Shown here: positions 1,910 to 15,027 of the stretch, piece after piece
Layout: every line of letters begins with the position of its first letter
How positions within the stretch are numbered: position 1 is the first letter of the stretch
Virus record (IMG/VR): IMGVR_UViG_2563366939_000004
Location: 1-24,834 of that record
Strand: one strand, 5' to 3'
Length of the DNA: 24,834 bases
DNA from: a virus
Lineage: Duplodnaviria; Heunggongvirae; Uroviricota; Caudoviricetes
Notes under the pieces: generated by a model
The model's database searches: none
What the model was told of the DNA's origin: nothing
The model's input: the letters and a program-made list of their open reading frames with translations, nothing else
Translations under genes and position numbers: made by a program

Positions 1910-2690
1910 ATTCCTCCTCCCCGCTATGCATGATCGCCACCATGCGCTGCGTCATTCGGACAAATCCATTTTCAATAGCCTGCTGATAATCAATGATCAC
2001 CAGCGCCGACTCCTCGAAAAGGCACTGAATTTCAGCGGGGGCATGAGCGTAATAGTCCGCAATTCTGCTGAAATTAAACACCGTGTGACGTTCTGCCGCA
2101 CACAGGAGGAATTTCTCAATATCAGGATCAAGGGACGCCGAACGTATCCGGCTGATCAGCTCCTGAGTTTTCGTATCGTCGTACAGTTCACTGATATCCG
2201 GTTTACCGCCCGACGGCTCATAAACAGGCGTATCAATTTTCGTCGTATACGGCTCCTCCTTATTTCCTGTACCGGGCAAAACATCCGTCAACAGTTCATC
2301 AATTTCTGTCGGGCCGAAGCCTGTCAGGGAGACATCAAAATCAGCATTGATTAGGTCCGACAGCTCCATCCGCAATAGATCTTCATCCCAGCCAGCATTC
2401 ATCGGTAGGCGATTATCTGCCAGGCGGTACGCCTTTTTCTGCTCATCCGTCAGGCCAGACAGAACAATGACCGGAACAGAATCCATTTTGAGCATTTCAG
2501 CCGCCATAACACGACCGTGACCCGCAATAATTTCGCCCTTTTCGTCAATCAGCACCGGATTAGTCCAGCCGAATTGCTTAATACTTTCTACCAGTTGTGC
2601 CACCTGCTCAGTACTGTGCGTCCTGGCGTTGTGCGCATACGGTGACAATTCTTGTAATGGGCGATAGACTATCTTTAATTTCTCGCTCAT
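1902..2690 (-). CDS. ParB/Srx-like nuclease-domain protein (262 aa)
   Basis: N-terminal ParB-N-like region (KIVYRPLQELSPYAHNARTHS...VLIDEKGEIIAGHGRVMAA); acidic C-terminal half; first gene of a two-gene cassette. Confidence 0.65.
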   Translation of the reverse strand: MSEKLKIVYRPLQELSPYAHNARTHSTEQVAQLVESIKQFGWTNPVLIDEKGEIIAGHGRVMAAEMLKMDSVPVIVLSGLTDEQKKAYRLADNRLPMNAGWDEDLLRMELSDLINADFDVSLTGFGPTEIDELLTDVLPGTGNKEEPYTTKIDTPVYEPSGGKPDISELYDDTKTQELISRIRSASLDPDIEKFLLCAAERHTVFNFSRIADYYAHAPAEIQCLFEESALVIIDYQQAIENGFVRMTQRMVAIMHSGEEEYA

Positions 2691-2827
2691 ACAGCCTTGC
2701 TTTATGAATAAAACGCACCCCAGCAGCCAGTGCTACTGGGGGCGGAGGTGTTGCTGGTAAAGTTAGGTATTGGATCAATGAGTGAGTCAATATAATATTA
2801 AACTCACAATTATAAATCAGCCATATA

Positions 2828-4285
2828 TTAGGAGCGCCAAAAAAAACCTGAAAACAATATAATAACAGGATAAATTTCAAGGCGACCAAGAATCATAGCT
2901 ATGCACATTAAATATTTTGCAATGTCATTAAGCACTCCGAATGACGATGCAGTAGCCCCAAAACCTAATCCCATATTATTAATACATGCAGCCACTGTTG
3001 CAAATGATGTAAGAAAATCATATCCCATACCATTTAACACCAGTATAAAAAACACCGTGAAGAGAGTATAAAGAAAAAAGAAACTCCATACAGACCTCAT
3101 TACACGATCTGTAACTATCTTCCCTCCTACATTTACACTCAACAACGCTCTGGGATGAGAAAGCTGATTTATCTCGTGTTTGCTTTGTTTGAAAAGTATA
3201 AGAAATCGAAGTGACTTAATTCCACCACAAGTTGAACCTATACATCCCCCAAAGAAACTTGACAACAGCAAAAACACTATCGTGTGCGTGGGCCAGTTTG
3301 CATAATCCTGCGTAGCTAAACCATTATCAGTGAGCATGGAGCTGGCAAGAAAAAACGAATGAATAAAACTTCCATGCAAGTCATACATACCTATATGCCA
3401 GACCTGGAAAGAGGTAACAATGATCACCCCTAAGGCTATTAACAGAAAGAAACGAAGTTCAATATCTCTGATTAAAGGTTTTATCGTTTTCCTGCTAATA
3501 ACAATATACCAAAGAGTGAAGTTGAAAGCCGATAGCAGGGAAAAAGAACCAGCCACCAGCTCAACCAAATAGTTATTAAAATATCCGATACTCTCGCTAT
3601 GAGTTGAGAAACCACCAAGCGAAACTGTGGAAATCCCGTGACAAATAGCATCAAACAAAGGCATTCCTGCAAGTCTATAACAGACAATACAAGCAATACC
3701 TAATAAAGAATAAGTTATCCACAGTGTCCGTGACGTATCGGCCAGGCGGGGAGTGAGTTTGTCATCCTTAAATGGCCCCGGCATTTCTGACTGATAAAGC
3801 TTTGCACCACCAATACCCAATAATGGCAATACAGCAACCGCCAGAACAATAACTCCTAAACCACCTATAAAATTTAACTGTGACCGATAGTACAAATATG
3901 CCCGAGGTAATGAACTAACATCATCAATTACAGTTGCTCCTGTTGTTGTTATTCCAGAAACCCCTTCAAACAGAGCATCAATGAACGTTAAATTAAGTTC
4001 TGAGTCAATCCATAAAGGGAATGCACTAATAACAGAAAACAAAATCCAAAACATTACAATTATAATAAACCCATCACGGGTACGTAATTGAATGCCAGAT
4101 TTCTTAGTTGTATACCACGCTCCGCCACCAATGCAAAAAAATATAACGAAAGTTATAAAGAAAACGAACAGGCTTTTTTCTTTATAAAACAATGCTACAA
4201 CCATTGGTGGCAACATTGAAAGACTATAGAGCCAAACCAGGAACCCACACATATGAGTAACAACTCTTACATGAGATGTATTCAT
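2828..4285 (-). CDS. trkG: TrkG, Trk-system K+ uptake membrane protein (485 aa from ATG at 4285; ORF-track start is an upstream TTG)
   Basis: Polytopic membrane protein starting MNTSHVRVVTHMCGFLVWLYSL..., matches my recollection of the K-12 Rac-encoded TrkG; strongly AT-rich relative to flanking DNA. Confidence 0.85.
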   Translation of the reverse strand: MNTSHVRVVTHMCGFLVWLYSLSMLPPMVVALFYKEKSLFVFFITFVIFFCIGGGAWYTTKKSGIQLRTRDGFIIIVMFWILFSVISAFPLWIDSELNLTFIDALFEGVSGITTTGATVIDDVSSLPRAYLYYRSQLNFIGGLGVIVLAVAVLPLLGIGGAKLYQSEMPGPFKDDKLTPRLADTSRTLWITYSLLGIACIVCYRLAGMPLFDAICHGISTVSLGGFSTHSESIGYFNNYLVELVAGSFSLLSAFNFTLWYIVISRKTIKPLIRDIELRFFLLIALGVIIVTSFQVWHIGMYDLHGSFIHSFFLASSMLTDNGLATQDYANWPTHTIVFLLLSSFFGGCIGSTCGGIKSLRFLILFKQSKHEINQLSHPRALLSVNVGGKIVTDRVMRSVWSFFFLYTLFTVFFILVLNGMGYDFLTSFATVAACINNMGLGFGATASSFGVLNDIAKYLMCIAMILGRLEIYPVIILFSGFFWRS

Positions 4286-4422
4286 ATCTAAATATTCTTT
4301 CAATTATAACCACCTTGCTGCAATATTATGATTATACTGTATAAAATTTAACCCCTCTTAGATCTTACTTCACTGTTCCTTATGAAACAATCATCAAAAT
4401 GAATCATATTGTAGTTAAGATT

Positions 4423-4899
4423 TTACTTTAAACACTGTTCGGTTATGTATTGCTGAGCACCTTCAAGTTGGGCCTGCATCATTACCAGTCGTTCCCGGAG
4501 GGTGAAATAATCCCGTTCAGCGGTGTCTGCCAGTCGGGGGGAGGCTGCATTATCCACGCCGGAGGCGGTGGTGGCTTCACGCACTGACTGACAGACTGCT
4601 TTGATGTGCAACCGACGACGACCAGCGGCAACATCATCACGCAGAGCATCATTTTCAGCTTTCGCATCAGCTAACTCCTTCGTGTATTTTGCATCGAGCG
4701 CAGCAACATCACGCTGACGCATCTGCATGTCAGTAATTGCCGCGTTCGCCAGCTTCAGTTCTCTGGCATTTTTGTCGCGCTGGGCTTTGTAGGTAATGGC
4801 GTTATCACGGTAATGATTAACAGCCCATGACAGGCAGACGATGATGCAGATAACCAGAGCGGAGATAATCGCGGTTACTCTGTTCATTGCTGACCCCAC
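4423..4899 (-). CDS. Rz-type i-spanin (inner-membrane spanin), full length
   Basis: 158 aa, N-terminal TM ([18 protein letters not shown]), coiled-coil-like periplasmic part; immediately downstream of endolysin with 16-nt overlap; equivalent of rzpR position. Confidence 0.8.
4482..4667 (-). CDS. Rz1-type o-spanin lipoprotein nested in +1 frame inside Rz
   Basis: 61 aa, lipobox-like LVVVGC, proline-rich ([13 protein letters not shown]); fully embedded in Rz gene; equivalent of rzoR. Confidence 0.8.
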
Positions 4900-6878: not shown

Positions 6879-7421
6879 TCAAGCCGTTTTTTGAGCGAGT
6901 GATTCTCGCATGGGAATGTATAGCGCATACTCAGCAACGGCCAACCAATTAGCAATTCGCTTTTCGCATGTGCTAAAACACCACTCTGGGTGTGCATCAT
7001 TTAGCAATTCAGCCATTTTGCGTTTGGTCATCCCCCGCCCCTCATACCGTTGCCGAAGGACGCTAATCAATCCTGGATGCTCTGCCAGCACCTCACTTAT
7101 GACCCGATCAATACATAACGCCTCTGCATCAGTACAATGCGCCAGCCAGCTCTTTTGCTTACCGTTAATCATATCCCGCAAAAAAGCCTCAAGTTCAGAC
7201 TTGTTCAGACCTGCTTTTTTCATCCTCCGGAGCGCCTCGTTAATTGCCGTTTTTGTCAGCTTTTTAGAGGCCAACAACTGATTGAACATATTTCCTGACC
7301 TGCCACCGCCAATATACGACCAGCGCCCCCACATACGCAGTTTGCCCTGAATCCAGACACTTTCCAGCGTTGCGAGACGAAGGTGTTCTCCGCTTTTTCC
7401 TGTATTCGTTGGGTAAATCAC
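6879..7421 (-). CDS. Putative late-gene antiterminator Q-like protein (about 180 aa from GTG at 7421)
   Basis: Position between nin-like genes and lysis cassette; GTG start preceded by AGGAGG and overlapping upstream stop (GTGA); two Cys pairs (CTDAEALC, WCFSTC) compatible with a Zn site. Family assignment is inference from synteny. Confidence 0.5.
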   Translation of the reverse strand: MIYPTNTGKSGEHLRLATLESVWIQGKLRMWGRWSYIGGGRSGNMFNQLLASKKLTKTAINEALRRMKKAGLNKSELEAFLRDMINGKQKSWLAHCTDAEALCIDRVISEVLAEHPGLISVLRQRYEGRGMTKRKMAELLNDAHPEWCFSTCEKRIANWLAVAEYALYIPMRESLAQKTA

Positions 7422-7708
7422 AAATATCCCTCCTTTCTCCAGATTTCTTGTGTGCGAAAAACACCTTCTGCATGCATCAGGCGTAATTCTTCTTTGGTGT
7501 AATCGCTGGTTTTTACCCGCCCGTCGATTAGATCGTGGCATGAGCTACAGGCAATCGCCGCCTGCATATCGTGTGGTTTTGTCGCTGTTCCGCACGTTCC
7601 CGCCAGTCGGTAATGCGCCAGCACAGACGTTTCCGGATCGTGATTGCAGTAGCCAGGAATTCTGACGGTGCACATCTGCCCCCGCGCCGCTTTACGTAAA
7701 TCCACCAT
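7418..7708 (-). CDS. YbcO-like small Cys-rich phage protein (DUF1364-type, putative nuclease)
   Basis: 96 aa, MVDLRKAARGQMCTVRIPGYCNHDPETSVLAH...CGTATKPHD...ACSSCHD resembles K-12 DLP12 YbcO from memory. Confidence 0.65.
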   Translation of the reverse strand: MVDLRKAARGQMCTVRIPGYCNHDPETSVLAHYRLAGTCGTATKPHDMQAAIACSSCHDLIDGRVKTSDYTKEELRLMHAEGVFRTQEIWRKEGYL

Positions 7709-8307
7709 TACGCAAACTCCAGCAGCTGCGCGGCCACATTTTCGACTTGTTCCGGAGAGGAAAATTTACGGAACAGAATCCAGTTCCACAGCACATTCAG
7801 AACAGATTTATAAACCTGCTGAAACTCGGTTTCGTCCATATTCGCAAAAGCGATGGATTTCGCCCGACGCCCATGGCTACCGTCCGGATAAAAATGTTCG
7901 GTGTAAAATCCAGCCTGAATGGTTACCCACTCGCGAAAAGCCTCAAACGACTTTAGCAATGCCGTATCCCGGGTTCTGCGTGTCGCAACTGTATTCAGAT
8001 ATTGCTCTGCGGCATCACTCAGGGCTGGCGTGTGTTCCCGACCAACTGATTCGCACAGGTAATCAACGAAACCAGACAGCAGTTCTCGTTCGCGAGGCGT
8101 GATCGCCCCACCGACCGGAGTCCAGTAATCGAATCCCAGTTGCAGGAGTTTGAAAAAACGCTTGTGGAATACGTAGTTACGCACACGCTTAAAGTCTGCG
8201 TGTATCCACTCACCTATTTTGATTTGATGCAGAAAATCGCAACTCTCCGGCGTCGCCGGGAGAAGTAAACCAGAAGAGGTTTGTTTGACCAGTTGTATAT
8301 GCGCCAT
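7708..8307 (-). CDS. Conserved lambdoid nin-region protein of unknown function (199 aa)
   Basis: ORF with 1-nt stop/start overlap (TAATG) with ybcO-like gene. Confidence 0.55.
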   Translation of the reverse strand: MAHIQLVKQTSSGLLLPATPESCDFLHQIKIGEWIHADFKRVRNYVFHKRFFKLLQLGFDYWTPVGGAITPRERELLSGFVDYLCESVGREHTPALSDAAEQYLNTVATRRTRDTALLKSFEAFREWVTIQAGFYTEHFYPDGSHGRRAKSIAFANMDETEFQQVYKSVLNVLWNWILFRKFSSPEQVENVAAQLLEFA

Positions 8308-8667: not shown

Positions 8668-8773
8668 AAATATTCACAGATAAAATATACCCGCCAAAGC
8701 AGGTTAAGTGCGGGTGCGTTGAGGATGCCTGACACATCAGAGGTGGCGAGGGATTTATCCCCCGCCAGGTCTC

Positions 8774-8929
8774 TTACTCCTCAGGTTCGTAAGCTGTGAA
8801 GACAGCGACCTCCGTCTGGCCGGTTCGGATTCGTACCTCACAGAGGTCTTTCCTCGTTACCAGTGCCGTCACTATGACGGTTAAACAGATGACGATCAGG
8901 GCGATTAACATCGCCTTTTGCTGCTTCAT
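8774..8929 (-). CDS. Hok-family type I toxin (51 aa)
   Basis: Hand translation gives MKQQKAMLIALIVICLTVIVTALVTRKDLCEVRIRTGQTEVAVFTAYEPEE, a Hok/Gef family sequence; missed by ORF track because under 60 aa. Confidence 0.85.
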   Translation of the reverse strand: MKQQKAMLIALIVICLTVIVTALVTRKDLCEVRIRTGQTEVAVFTAYEPEE

Positions 8930-9451
8930 AGCCTGCTTCTCCTTGACCTTTCGGTCCGTAAGAGGCTAATCTCTATGTGTCGCATAGATATGGCCTCAGA
9001 TTAATGTTAAACGTCTTGCAGGACGCGTAATGTTAACTGGGGCTTTTCTCTATCTACCTTTGGTGTTCATGCCCGAGGCAGATAGCCTCAAGCACCCACA
9101 GCAATTCTAACTATCCAATACATCACTGCCAACACTTTAAACTCTTACCCTTTAAAACAAGAACAAAATTCAACCAATCAGCATTGGGCGTATACTCATA
9201 TCCTAGAGAAAACAACTCTTTCTGTACTATTTATATCCATATGATTTATAAGCATTTGCCACTTGCCATAGCCGCACAATGACAGTTTGCCATTTGATGT
9301 CAATAGATAAAAATGATCGTTTTCAATGAGTTACATACTTGCAAGGCGTTGCACATCAGGCCCGATTACGTCAGTATCAAAAGATTACAGATGGTGCATT
9401 ACTGCCACCTCGCCTTAATGTTCCAGAACTCTCCAACTTGAGGAATTTTCA

Positions 9452-10225
9452 ATGACATCCTTTCAATTATCTTTGATTTCTCGTGAAATTGACGGCGAAA
9501 TAATACATTTACGTGCCAAAGATGGTTACATAAACGCCACATCAATGTGTAGAACTGCGGGCAAACTGCTCTCTGATTACACTAGACTCAAAACTACTCA
9601 AGAGTTTTTTGACGAATTATCACGCGATATGGGAATTCCCATATCGGAGTTAATTCAATCATTTAAAGGTGGAAGACCTGAAAACCAAGGGACATGGGTG
9701 CATCCTGACATCGCTATTAATCTAGCGCAGTGGCTATCGCCCAAATTTGCAGTCCAGGTTTCAAGATGGGTTCGTGAATGGATGTCAGGGGAAAGAACTA
9801 CAGCAGAAATGCCTGTACATTTAAAACGGTACATGGTTAATCGTAGTAGAATTCCTCACACGCACTTTTCTATTCTTAATGAACTGACATTCAACTTGGT
9901 TGCACCTCTTGAACAAGCAGGGTACACACTCCCAGAAAAAATGGTTCCTGACATTTCACAAGGAAGAGTATTTTCACAATGGTTAAGAGATAATAGAAAC
10001 ATAGAACCCAAAACATTCCCTACCTATGACCATGAATATCCCGATGGTCGCGTATACCCTGCAAGGCTGTACCCAAATGAATATTTAGCAGATTTCAAAG
10101 AACATTTTAACAATATTTGGTTGCCGCAATATGCCCCGAAATACTTCGCTGACCGGGACAAAAAGGCTCTCGCCTTGATTGAAAAAATTATGCTACCTAA
10201 CCTCGATGGCAATGAACAGTTCTAA
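9452..10225 (+). CDS. KilA-N domain protein with uncharacterised C-terminal domain (257 aa)
   Basis: N-terminal KilA-N/APSES-like region (IDGEIIHLRAKDGYINATSMCRTAGK...WVHPDIAINLAQWLSPKFAVQVSRWV); GAGGA RBS; opposite strand to neighbours; AT-rich flanks. Confidence 0.65.
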   Translation: MTSFQLSLISREIDGEIIHLRAKDGYINATSMCRTAGKLLSDYTRLKTTQEFFDELSRDMGIPISELIQSFKGGRPENQGTWVHPDIAINLAQWLSPKFAVQVSRWVREWMSGERTTAEMPVHLKRYMVNRSRIPHTHFSILNELTFNLVAPLEQAGYTLPEKMVPDISQGRVFSQWLRDNRNIEPKTFPTYDHEYPDGRVYPARLYPNEYLADFKEHFNNIWLPQYAPKYFADRDKKALALIEKIMLPNLDGNEQF

Positions 10226-10227
10226 AT

Positions 10228-10258
10228 GATTAGCCAGCCCCATAAGGGCTGGTTATTT
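10228..10258 (+). terminator. Putative intrinsic terminator after KilA-N gene
   Basis: agccagccccataagggctggttattt: stem CCAGCCC/GGGCTGG followed by T-rich tract. Confidence 0.5.
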
Positions 10259-10265
10259 AGTATTA

Positions 10266-10349
10266 TCAACCCCAGCGGCAAATCGAATACACCACCAGCG
10301 CCACCGCCATCGCAATTCCTACCGTTGTGAATGCTTCAGACCAGGTCAT
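10266..10349 (-). CDS. Putative 27-aa hydrophobic small protein (MTWSEAFTTVGIAMAVALVVYSICRWG)
   Basis: GGAGG 9 nt upstream of ATG; single TM-like segment; immediately downstream of 149-aa gene. Confidence 0.25.
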   Translation of the reverse strand: MTWSEAFTTVGIAMAVALVVYSICRWG

Positions 10350-10398
10350 CGTAAAACATCCTCCACGCTTATAAGTCCGCTTCGCTCCAGGTAGTCCA

Positions 10399-10848
10399 TC
10401 ACTTTATCCGGCAATTTGCAGCCGGTTTCGCTTTCTTCAGTTGACTAACCAATTGTTTAACCAGCATTGTCAATTCGCGAACTTGTTTCCCGGGCTCCCC
10501 TTTGCCCTGAAGCAGGGCAGCGCGGCAAGCGTTCCATCCCTCAGCATATGTTTCAGTTACACCATCGAGATGGCATGTAAGCAAATCCATTTCTTCCGGC
10601 ACTACGGGCGCTGGAAAAACGGCATAGGATGGCGTCCATTTTGGCGCTTTATCTCCAGCCGAACGCTGATACCAGTCATCCGGTTTGTATTCATAAAAAT
10701 CACCAACTGGCTCTGCTTCCAGAGATGCCAGAGCAATTTTGAATAATTCGCCCTCTACCCGTGCCATCCCTGAATTGGGGTGGCATTTCTCAATCGCTAT
10801 TTTTAATTTAGCTTCTTCGATTAATTGCTTTTTGGTTAATTCAGTCAT
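10399..10848 (-). CDS. Hypothetical phage protein (149 aa)
   Basis: ORF in early-region operon; no recognisable motif. Confidence 0.5.
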   Translation of the reverse strand: MTELTKKQLIEEAKLKIAIEKCHPNSGMARVEGELFKIALASLEAEPVGDFYEYKPDDWYQRSAGDKAPKWTPSYAVFPAPVVPEEMDLLTCHLDGVTETYAEGWNACRAALLQGKGEPGKQVRELTMLVKQLVSQLKKAKPAANCRIK

Positions 10849-11009
10849 TTTTCATTACCGCCCTTTCGGGCCGCCTCCTAATATTTTGAGGGTGCAGCCC
10901 CCCCCTCCGGTTAAGGATTAAATTTTATTTACAGTGCTAAATTTAATTATTCAGATTTGGATTATGATTTCTCTTTCAGTTCACGCAGTTCCCTGATTGT
11001 TAATTTGGC

Positions 11010-11447
11010 TCACAACAGCACATCCTGAAAATTACCCTGATAGAACGCCAGTACACGCTGTATGACTTCGCTCTTCCGGCACTCGCGACAGATTATATTC
11101 AGACGCCTGTCATAGCGGCGTATTTCTCCGTCTGGTAATGACCAGATAAGGTCCGGATCAACTACAGCAGGTTTCTTCACCTTTGCCCTCGATAGTTTTT
11201 TGCGGGCGTTTTGCCAGTCCTTACGAGCCTGTTCAGAGGGAAATAGCCCGTAGCCGGAGTTATATACATCGCCACTGGCAACCAGCTCTCTGGCGAGAAC
11301 GCTCATTAAATATCTTGTCGCACCTGTCTTAGCTTCAAGTTGTCGTAACGTCTCGCGCCCATTCTGGCGCACGAGTTCAACAACCTGCCCCTTAATTTTT
11401 TCCCGCTCTTCTTGTGTAAATACTTTTGCCATAAGCGCCTCCGGCAA
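11010..11447 (-). CDS. Hypothetical phage protein (145 aa), basic, CxxC pair near C-terminus
   Basis: ORF abutting stop of upstream gene. Confidence 0.5.
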   Translation of the reverse strand: MPEALMAKVFTQEEREKIKGQVVELVRQNGRETLRQLEAKTGATRYLMSVLARELVASGDVYNSGYGLFPSEQARKDWQNARKKLSRAKVKKPAVVDPDLIWSLPDGEIRRYDRRLNIICRECRKSEVIQRVLAFYQGNFQDVLL

Positions 11448-12209
11448 TCACTTTTCCGATACAACACAGCGGGAAGAATCAGTAATCTGGCGAACAATAT
11501 CCCGGTGCTTGTTCAACTCCCGCAGCGCGGCGCAGACACGCTCCCACTTCTGGACATGGCTTTTCGCCCGACGCAGTTCACGATTTGCTATATGCAGCGA
11601 TGGTAAAATCAGGTTATCCGCTTGCGTTTCAGTAAACGATGGCAACGACTGCACAATGTCCGCCACAGTTTCTGTTTTAATATCTTCCTGTGTTGCAGCT
11701 TCCAGTACTGGTAACGCAACACCGGCTGGCTGAGGAAAGGCTTTACCATCAGTTTCCGCTACCGATGCAGCTTTCGGCTCTGCTGGTAAATTATCGCCCG
11801 GCATGCAGTAACGAAATTTACCGTTCTGATTAACGCGAATCAGACGACCTTTACTGATTGCCATTGCCAGCGTTGAAGCCACTTTGCGTGATGTGATGCC
11901 GAAAAACGTAGCCAGTTCTTCCGCCGTTTGTGGGCCACGTTGTTCAATCGTCGCAGTTAAATCGCACTCCGAAATTTTTGCGACTGTTGCCGTGGTGGTT
12001 TCTTCCGGCAGTTCTGCCTGCTCTGGCTGTTCCTGCTGAACGTTGTTATCAGCCACGCGCCAGGTGTATACGCTTTTATCAACGAAGCCAGCCTTTTTCA
12101 GTTCCCACAGCTCGTTCAGCACTTCTTCACGACTGATATCAAGTCGCGCAGCCAGTTCTACCGACGTAGCTTTCCCCATTGCTTTCAGTGCGTCAAAAAC
12201 AGTCTCCAT
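11448..12209 (-). CDS. Hypothetical protein with two winged-helix-like DNA-binding segments (about 254 aa from ATG at 12209; longer start at 12260 possible)
   Basis: Repeated HTH-like segments ([30 protein letters not shown] and [31 protein letters not shown]); GGAG upstream of 12209. Confidence 0.5.
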
Positions 12210-12231
12210 TAAATTTTTCTCCCGGTAAAAA

Positions 12232-12978
12232 TTACTTCGCAATTCCTGGCTGGACGACATTCGGACGCCAGCTCTCCCAGTTAAAATTCACCCATCGCCC
12301 GCCGTTCATGGTCATGCGATCCATAATCCGCTCGCCGAGCAATGTTTTCATGGCCCCATAGTTCAGGTTTGTCAGCATCCCCACGCTGCGCATCGACGCT
12401 GTCCGGCGATCAACAATCTGGTGCAGTACCACCTGCTCGTTTTTCGTCTCGCGCTGAATGCCAATTTCATCAAGAACCAGCAGATCCACTTCGCACAGTT
12501 CCCGCAAAAATTTTTCGCCTGATTTCCCGTCGTCATAGCTGGCGTGTAGAGCACTCATGACATCAGCCACGGTAACCACAATCACTGTCTGGCCATCTTT
12601 CAGCAGGCGATTCCCGATTGCCGCCGCCAGATGGTTTTTTCCGGTACCAGGTTTTCCGCTGAACGCAAAATTTGTACACCCGGTCATCAGTTCATCAGCG
12701 ATAGATTTCGCCTGGCTCAACGCGTATCGCTGGCCGTCGTTCTGCACCAGGTAATTCGCAAACGAGCATTTGCGGTGCAACGGCTGGATGCCGGAGCGAT
12801 TCAGGATTTTTTCCACCCGCAACTGACGATTCTGACGGTTGATCTCCTCACAACGTTTCTGGCCTTCTGCAAGTTGCCACTCGCGCCACTCAGCCACCGT
12901 CCTGAATGGGGCGGTTACATGTGGCGGGGCCAGTCTGCGGATACGTTCAAGAATGCCGCCTGCCGCAATATTTTTCAT
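12232..12978 (-). CDS. ydaV: DnaC/IstB-like AAA+ replication protein (helicase loader, lambda P analogue)
   Basis: Walker [16 protein letters not shown] and Walker B LLVLDEIG; 248 aa as recalled for K-12 YdaV. Confidence 0.8.
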
Positions 12979-14607: not shown

Positions 14608-15027
14608 ATGGTTCATGAAGATAAAGCGCGTAAAGAGTTCGCCAGTAGGCTTGCGCTAGCCTGTGAAAACGCTGGTTATGAACAACATGGAAGGCAGGCA
14701 GAAATTGCCCGTCGAATGAAATTAACACCAAAAGCGGTTAGCAAATGGTTTAATGGCGAAACAATTCCTCGCCGAGAGAAATTAAGGGAATTAGCAACAC
14801 TCATTGGAACAACACCAACCTATCTTTTGGGAGAGGATACAGAAGAAAGTGGACAGGTACGTTTCTATCAGGAGTTAAATCCAAGACAAAAAATCATCAT
14901 TGACCTTCTGGACGAGCTCCCTGACAGTGAGACAGATGAACTTTTAAAAACTCTTGAGGAGAAAAAACAGAAGTACAATGCAATTTACGAAGAGTTAGCA
15001 CGAAAGAAAAAACAAAAAGCCTCTTAA
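14608..15027 (+). CDS. racR: RacR prophage repressor (HTH, XRE-like)
   Basis: 139-aa ORF with HTH (MKLTPKAVSKWFNGETIP); first in-frame ATG; in-frame stop at 14551 limits N-terminal extension. Confidence 0.8.
   Translation: MVHEDKARKEFASRLALACENAGYEQHGRQAEIARRMKLTPKAVSKWFNGETIPRREKLRELATLIGTTPTYLLGEDTEESGQVRFYQELNPRQKIIIDLLDELPDSETDELLKTLEEKKQKYNAIYEELARKKKQKAS

Follow-up and report, generated by a model that had tools for sequence, protein, structure and literature searches.

BstA, a constitutively expressed prophage protein, goes to replicating foreign phage DNA, halts the replication of that DNA and causes the infection to abort (Owen et al. 2021, PMC8585504). Prophage BTP1 is protected from its own BstA by aba, a 63-bp DNA element with terminal direct repeats at the 5' end of bstA, which works only on multicopy replicating DNA; each BstA homologue has its own cognate aba, that of the other BstA proteins being unmapped, and the mode of action of aba and the recognition target of BstA are left as open questions in the Discussion of that paper (PMC8585504). 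BstA proteins are tolerated under constitutive expression and act only upon infection (PMC8585504). A position right after the prophage repressor, with co-transcription, is frequent in the family without being universal. Here we describe a bstA-like gene in the window, by which we mean the whole 24,834-nucleotide stretch of the virus record IMGVR_UViG_2563366939_000004, a Rac-like lambdoid Escherichia coli prophage. The region in question is probably a 1.16-kb moron cassette in an inducible prophage that encodes a BstA-family abortive-infection protein, and the gene carries a 22-bp palindrome in its own reading frame.

The window gene resembles those of BTP1 BstA, BstA-Ec and BstA-Kp in being prophage-borne and in encoding a single protein of 250-310 amino acids (aa), with a domain of KilA-N type at its N-terminus and a homologous domain at its C-terminus. 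With BTP1 BstA it also shares its PHROG and a Rho-independent terminator of its own, and sister genes of the window gene stand directly after a repressor. BTP1 BstA has no Pfam KilA-N hit and the two N-terminal domains are not aligned by BLASTP, whereas the window protein, which is 50 aa shorter, has a bona fide Pfam KilA-N domain; BTP1 bstA, for its part, has no palindrome comparable to the conserved one of the window gene. By homology, the gene would thus be an abortive-infection moron of a defence family that is already known. What is new is a BstA variant with a canonical KilA-N domain, an antisense slot, no BTP1-type aba signature and an embedded, co-varying palindrome.

Two other kinds of system invite comparison. 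The KilA-N + Ant/KilA-C protein of Bacteroides phage LoVEphage (CAJ1312223) is 53% identical to the window protein over aa 27-109, and genes of this type carry a palindrome at homologous codons; their C-terminal half, however, belongs to Ant PHROGs 63 and 130, where the window protein has the BstA domain. Lambda rexAB and repressor-linked defence morons are, like the window cassette in its presumed role, abortive-infection cassettes expressed in the lysogen and placed in a mosaic hot spot. A likeness between BstA and the role of lambda rexAB was drawn by Owen et al. (PMC8585504), but rexAB has no kinship to the window gene in sequence or architecture, and the window copy lies in a different slot.

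The protein and its cassette

The gene and the two domains of its product lie as follows.

9452-10225, plus strand: bstA-like gene, 257 aa, the sole long open reading frame (ORF) of the interval in the ORF listing
9491-9787, plus strand: KilA-N (APSES-like) DNA-binding domain, aa 14-112
9806-10204, plus strand: BstA C-terminal domain, the presumed effector, aa ~119-251, counterpart of residues ~156-307 of BTP1 BstA

Profile searches show the predicted protein to be a two-domain fusion of a canonical KilA-N/APSES-type N-terminus with a BstA C-terminal domain. Pfam KilA-N (PF04383) matches aa 14-112 at E=3.6e-27 with 94.8 bits, against a gathering cut-off of 23.8, and phrog_129 ("transcriptional regulator") matches the same domain at 9e-25. 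The BstA model of PADLOC matches aa 119-238 (E=3.3e-21), and BLASTP against BTP1 BstA gives 32% identity over 142 aa (E=4e-16). Over its full length the protein matches phrog_6287, "BstA abortive infection system, replication inhibitor" (E=5.3e-89), the PHROG that also takes in BTP1 BstA (2e-150). All close homologues bear PF26567 in precomputed protein-database annotation; our local Pfam copy holds no model for the C-terminal domain, and NCBIfam gave no match to the window protein.

These matches bear on an earlier note on this DNA, which had been made from the letters alone. Its 257-aa KilA-N protein is confirmed by the Pfam match. The note had listed the C-terminal domain as unknown, a region of unknown fold; a homology search identifies it as a BstA C-terminal domain, so the family is known, and the description still holds to the extent that no structural relative of the domain was found among solved structures. 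The alternative that the note itself had raised, a C-terminus of the Ant/Bro-C type, was not found: no Pfam Ant/KilA-C/Bro-C family matches even at E<=1, and the PHROG search returned no Ant PHROG for the window protein. Its guess of an abortive-infection function gains support from homology, that is, from the BstA C-terminal domain and the PHROG shared with BTP1 BstA, and the phenotype is one that we infer.

The BstA clade to which the gene is assigned is large and unusually conserved. A homologue search returned 2652 matches, and the best 120 of these 2652 are all two-domain proteins (PF26567 + PF04383) with 56-82% identity; genome matches at 50-60% identity come from Proteobacteria, Verrucomicrobiota, Bacteroidota, Planctomycetota, Spirochaetia, Nitrospirota, Armatimonadota and bacteria of the candidate phyla radiation (CPR). 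A closer clade (253 aa, 85-88% identical), found in phage PhiR5_2 and about 50 viral contigs, sits directly after cI-type genes of at least five alleles, which is the hallmark place of a BstA gene, and is followed by N. When the C-terminal domain alone was the query, 416 cluster representatives were recovered, in which it almost always forms the C-terminal half of a protein of 230-300 aa. Its N-terminal partners in a sample of ten were KilA-N (five), Bro-N (two) and ORF6N (one), with two undetected. Such partners suit a conserved effector that is linked to replication and to which interchangeable modules for DNA binding or sensing are attached. One of the five KilA-N cases (P0145, 1230 aa) unites KilA-N and the BstA C-terminal domain with a PriCT_2 + DUF3987 primase/helicase-type protein in a single fusion, which may hint at an action of the effector domain on the replication machinery.

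The cassette and the signals in and beside it are these.

~9110-10267, plus strand: moron cassette, comprising upstream control region, gene and terminator, as defined by empty-site junctions and GC contrast
9255-9265 and 9286-9296, plus strand: two direct repeats TTTGCCAyTTG, 11 nt each and 31 bp apart, in the upstream region of the cassette
9287-9314, plus strand: best sigma-70-like promoter candidate, weak (TTGCCA-16-AAAAAT, 9/12 match)
9440-9444, plus strand: Shine-Dalgarno sequence GAGGA, 7 nt 5' of the ATG, read from the sequence
10231-10255, plus strand: intrinsic-terminator-like hairpin, a 10-pair stem with 6 G-C pairs followed by TTTAGTATT, which closes the cassette transcript
9132-9104, minus strand: hok promoter candidate (TTGGCA-17-TAGAAT, 10/12)
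8927-9097: Rfam sok match (sok/hok leader), E=2.5e-23

Comparison with related prophages shows that the cassette is an insertion/deletion unit. When positions 8700-10900 were used as query, some genomes were found in which no more than about 520 bp separate the hok flank from the right flank. At the empty site of E. coli EC21Z-101 (L367), the left homology stops after ...CAGCAATTCTA (~9109) and the right homology restarts at CCCCAGCGGCAAATCG (~10268); because the flanks join directly there, the unit spans ~9110-10267, or 1.16 kb. Other prophages carry other cargo in this slot, for example paa/adfO in PPompW, and other lambdoid phages carry the same gene family in another slot, right after cI. 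The claim of the earlier note that this is an independently acquired moron agrees with all three observations. Its further remarks on the gene are likewise borne out: the strong ribosome binding site and the terminator correspond to GAGGA at 9440-9444 and the hairpin at 10231-10255, the AT-rich setting to a GC content of 39.6% in the cassette against 49.8% and 49.4% in the flanking gene blocks, and the opposite orientation to substantial neighbouring ORFs that all lie on the minus strand. A hairpin and T-run right after the stop codon are found in nearly every homologue. The TTTGCCAyTTG repeats overlap the candidate -35 of the sole promoter-like site, and the pair may be a regulator site or operator.

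The left junction of the cassette falls between the -10 and the -35 of the promoter at 9104-9132, which we assign to hok from its position and the Rfam sok match; the cassette therefore supplies the hok -35. The -35 brought by the insert (TTGGCA) is better than that of the empty-site version. The cassette is adjoined on this side by a complete hok/sok type I toxin-antitoxin module (8774-9132).

The Rac-like prophage of the window carries int, xis, recET, kilR, sieB and a racR/ydaS-type immunity region, together with O- and DnaC-like replication genes, nin-like genes, Q, lysis genes, trkG and terminase. Its lytic operon (cro-O-P-nin-Q-lysis) runs on the minus strand from ~14600 to 977 and the repressor-like gene (14608-15027), recET and int lie on the plus strand, so the bstA-like gene has the orientation of the repressor and the lysogenic genes and is antisense to lytic transcription. 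Its slot lies between hok, on the nin side, and the replication module, ~4.4 kb from the repressor-like ORF. E. coli 7/2 has a prophage with this gene order, in which the interval 9060-10260 is 99.9% identical to that of the window. Of 5426 complete E. coli genomes, 117 carry at least 80% of the 1.2-kb interval; in them the gene is annotated merely as "KilA-N domain-containing protein" and is 99.9% identical across 114 of the 117. The locus is also found in three isolated phage genomes of ~38 kb (vB_EcoS-673R7, -666R9 and -613R10), and the element is therefore a live phage.

The palindrome in the KilA-N coding region

The most unusual feature of the locus, which the earlier note had missed, is a palindrome within the KilA-N coding region.

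9625-9646: perfect 22-bp palindrome CGATATGGGAATTCCCATATCG, encoding (R)DMGIPIS
9610-9661, plus strand: extended hairpin with an inner 9-bp stem and an outer GAATTA/TAATTC stem, matching the wider constraint zone at aa 50-72

The palindrome is the longest perfect one in the window, a length of 22 bp being reached in 2 of 200 shuffles, which taken alone would draw no attention. Neither a further copy nor a half-site was found in the window, and Rfam has no family at this position. A scan of synonymous variation in 16 thinned homologues (77-100% protein identity) revealed a single trough in the gene, with observed/expected ratios of 0.21 at aa 59-65 and 0.42 at aa 66-72 and of ~1.0 elsewhere; the rare codons CCC and ATA are invariant within it. 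Of 112 distinct coding sequences, 71 keep 9 or more of the 11 pairs complementary around exactly this centre, against a background of 0.1%, and 78 keep 8 or more.

The letters of the arms change between lineages while the symmetry stays. More than ten compensatory variants were seen, among them ATATCGGAATTCCGATAT and AAACGGGAATTCCCGTTT as well as the arm pairs GATATGGGAA with TTCCCATATC, GAAACGGGAA with TTCCCGTTTC, GATATCGGAA with TTCCGATATC, GATGCGGGAA with TTCCCGCATC, GATGTCGGAA with TTCCGACATC, TCCATGGGAA with TTCCCATGGA, TCTGCGGGAA with TTCCCGCAGA and GATATCGGTA with TACCGATATC; in a further pair, ATATGCAGA with TTTGCACAT, the change extends to the GIP motif, which is replaced. Residues 60 and 64 vary together in exactly the way that complementarity of the bases requires (M/I, T/V, A/A, I/I, V/T). 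In a covariation test on 93 distinct 34-nt segments, which included those without a palindrome, 71.7% of cells were paired, whereas shuffles gave 57.5% and none of 500 came up to the observed value; the sequences are phylogenetically related, so that cell counts overstate independent events. The covariation score of 0.327 exceeded both that of shuffles (0.153; none of 500 reached 0.327) and that of slid partners (0.07-0.10), and double changes occurred at all 10 pairs. These comparisons of homologues show that the palindrome is under selection. Its four central bases vary freely. The extended hairpin has a predicted folding energy of -23.2 kcal/mol as RNA (z -3.7) and -13.6 as DNA (z -4.3), and its outer stem might, on weak evidence, explain the wider constraint zone.

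In the profile alignment to Mbp1, a gap stands opposite the seven residues that the palindrome encodes, which are therefore an insertion relative to the fungal APSES domain. A literature search brought up no paper in which KilA-N genes are connected with a palindrome, and the BstA paper mentions none (PMC8585504).

Palindromes also occur at homologous codons of KilA-N genes with other C-termini, in LoVEphage (Ant-type), MW202478 and PaV-LD, and an unbiased set of 79 LoVEphage-like loci contains variants such as GCCGATATG-N8-CATATCGGC and CCGTTAGG-N8-CCTAACGG. In palindrome-bearing KilA-N genes with unrelated C-termini, including those of Bacteroides phages and of giant-virus metagenome-assembled genomes (MAGs), the arms differ and are still complementary. 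By its distribution, the palindrome is a feature of KilA-N and not of BstA. A scan of viral contigs with the MW202478 KilA-N protein gave no match. An exact scan of viral contigs for ATATGGGAATTCCCATAT yielded at least 119 loci, made up of 13 BstA-type genes, 13 other KilA-N genes (including giant-virus MAGs) and 93 non-coding copies, which we call orphans. The loci concerned are the following, identified by the L numbers of our collection.

L165:1432-2262, L166:1474-2244, L167:1441-1968, L176, L207, L288-L366: KilA-N loci with other C-termini and a palindrome
L170-L286, for example L172:8536-8553, and L287 at ~3600: non-coding orphan copies, (C)CGATATGGGAATTCCCATATCG(G)

All 93 orphans lie in enterobacterial prophages and share an 18-mer. 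Their commonest context is a dozen bases upstream of the -35 of a hok promoter, at the moron junction that holds the window cassette, and one 69-nt orphan context recurs, unannotated, in 578 of 5426 complete E. coli genomes. Orphans share just 18-34 nt with KilA-N genes, and only 2 of the 93 have a KilA-N gene within ~7 kb. They were considered as long pseudogene remnants, which was rejected because the homology ends after 18-34 nt, and as terminators, which was rejected because the enterobacterial copies have no T-run on either side. The genome IMGVR_UViG_2690316115_000011 (L168/L022) has both a repressor-linked bstA-like gene with a GGGG-variant palindrome and an orphan perfect palindrome ~5.6 kb away, and so holds two copies of the site in one phage genome.

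An initiator gene that carries its binding sites (ori-lambda) inside its coding sequence is familiar from lambda O. The window gene is similar in that it would encode a DNA-binding protein and holds a conserved, putatively cis-acting DNA element in its own frame; it differs in that ori-lambda consists of iterons, whereas here there is a single palindrome with no indication of origin function, and binding of the protein to its own gene is hypothetical.

Mechanism and rival readings

By homology to BstA of BTP1, Klebsiella and E. coli (PMC8585504), the protein would be made in the lysogen. Upon infection by another phage, its DNA-binding domain would take it to the replicating phage DNA and its C-terminal domain would block replication of that DNA, so that the infected cell dies without progeny. 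We consider this division of labor, with KilA-N targeting replicating foreign DNA and the C-terminal domain stopping replication in an abortive infection, to be likely. On induction the prophage would have to escape its own protein, and the anatomy of the locus offers two devices. One is convergent lytic transcription through the antisense gene. The other is the palindrome at 9625-9646, to which a KilA-N dimer may bind so that it acts in cis, either as an operator for autoregulation or as a decoy of the aba-like kind. A decoy of this sort would gain copies as the DNA replicates, in keeping with the need of BTP1 aba for multicopy replicating DNA.

Several observations weigh against this picture or parts of it. 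The abortive-infection function is carried over to this clade from characterized BstA proteins. The PADLOC match spans just 43% of the model length, identity to characterized BstA proteins is limited to the C-terminal domain, and the sensor half differs from that of BTP1 BstA, which has no Pfam KilA-N hit. BTP1 bstA is a gene of the repressor operon, whereas the window gene lies outside it, antisense between the replication and nin modules. Promoter-like sites in the cassette region do not rise above shuffled sequence, the 9/12 candidate being the best. No similarity to BTP1 aba was found in the window gene, which is to be expected because aba elements are homologue-specific; nor is there synonymous constraint at the 5' end (observed/expected 0.91 at aa 2-8), and a search for an aba-like element, as direct repeats at the start codon or 5' conservation, turned up just a non-conserved TTTCAAT repeat. 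As to the palindrome, one third of the family (the "AQTGLPEQQL" subclade) is without it at the usual site, and RNAalifold found no consensus structure across all 93 segments, because one third of the rows have no palindrome. A dedicated anti-BstA role is disfavored, since the palindrome occurs in non-BstA KilA-N genes and is absent from BTP1 bstA; its occurrence in such genes favors a general KilA-N function such as autoregulation. Some Stenotrophomonas members of the "AQTGLPEQQL" subclade (L110, L111, L114, L115, L123, L138) have GAGTTCCTG with CAGGAACTC eight codons upstream, at window aa 54, and it looks as if their palindrome had been relocated and not lost.

For the gene itself, a KilA-N-type regulator or antirepressor of the Ant/Roi-like kind, modulating induction or early transcription in the life cycle of its own prophage, seems unlikely. 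Such a role would suit the match of the KilA-N domain to a "transcriptional regulator" PHROG, the many KilA-N proteins annotated as regulators or antirepressors, the position in the early region, and an internal palindrome of the sort an autoregulated DNA-binding protein might use. The C-terminal half, however, is specifically BstA, with no ANT/KilA-C/Bro-C domain; the gene is antisense to the early operon with a terminator of its own; and related prophages do without the whole cassette, which is therefore dispensable for the life cycle. The KilA-N domain takes its name from a lethal P1 protein, and the gene adjoins a toxin-antitoxin module, so that one might think of a host-killing "kil" product like P1 KilA, held in check, with a post-segregational or lysis-related function. 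We regard this as very unlikely: with its strong ribosome binding site the gene is kept 99.9% identical in nearly all carrier genomes, our data suggest no partner antitoxin, and BstA proteins are tolerated when constitutive and act only on infection (PMC8585504). A BstA-family defence gene remains the reading that we prefer.

For the palindrome, our leading guess is a DNA site for self-immunity or autoregulation. In its specific form, in which the duplex or an extruded hairpin is read in cis by the gene's own KilA-N domain as an aba-type self-immunity element, with orphans as decoys that let other phages escape, the idea is a tentative one. Equally tentative is its extension, that phages and giant viruses would have many KilA-N genes with an operator of their own in the reading frame, residues 60 and 64 being made to co-vary by complementarity. 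A hairpin in the mRNA of KilA-N genes that adjusts their translation, ribosome pausing or message stability is conceivable at a similarly low probability. The stable RNA fold, the loop-like freedom of the central 4 nt and a covariation that fits base pairing speak for it, but stem mismatches on the coding strand (7 G-U-type, 13 A-C-type, 41 other) show no G-U excess, which leans weakly toward a DNA-level or strand-neutral constraint; moreover, identical palindromes stand in non-coding DNA in either orientation to their neighbors, and the element is kept from Proteobacteria to giant viruses despite their differing translation systems. Rather unlikely is a recombination joint or structural hot spot, such as a cruciform or a short homology patch, that serves exchange or truncation of KilA-N genes and morons and has no regulatory role. 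It would account for orphans placed exactly at the moron junction beside the hok promoter, for their short shared homology and the recurrence of the 18-mer at 93 or more non-coding places, and for the one context spread through 578 E. coli genomes. A homology patch needs no two-fold symmetry, however; symmetry-keeping changes across phyla and the relocated Stenotrophomonas palindrome point to selection on a symmetric structure, and the junctions of the window cassette lie away from the palindrome.

Neighboring genes and significance

The ORF layout around the cassette, all on the minus strand, is as follows.

6879-7541, minus strand: Q-like
7418-7708, minus strand: DUF1364-like
7708-8307, minus strand: DUF1367-like
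8774-8929, minus strand: hok
10270-10350, minus strand: short hydrophobic ORF (MTWSEAFTTVGIAMAVALVVYSICRWG)
10399-10848, minus strand: ORF
11010-11447, minus strand: DUF977-like
11448-12260, minus strand: DUF1627-like
12232-12978, minus strand: DnaC-like

The short hydrophobic ORF abuts the right junction of the cassette and belongs to the prophage backbone, since the same sequence is present at the empty site. Farther away, a trkG-like potassium-transporter ORF (2828-4303, minus strand) separates the lysis genes from the packaging genes, an arrangement shared with Rac; it is a further cargo gene, in a low-GC stretch (35-42% GC, ~2500-4500).

BstA is among the few prophage defence systems for which a self-immunity device has been described. 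The clade of the window gene joins a textbook KilA-N domain to a sharply bounded, protected 22-bp palindrome and thereby offers a handle on the DNA target of KilA-N. The proposal that the palindrome is such a site also bears on the self-immunity of the BstA class and on natural decoys in competing prophages. Even if the palindrome were merely a structural or recombination element, it would be a striking case in which selection on the nucleic acid dictates amino-acid co-variation, in a protein domain that is common to phages and giant viruses.

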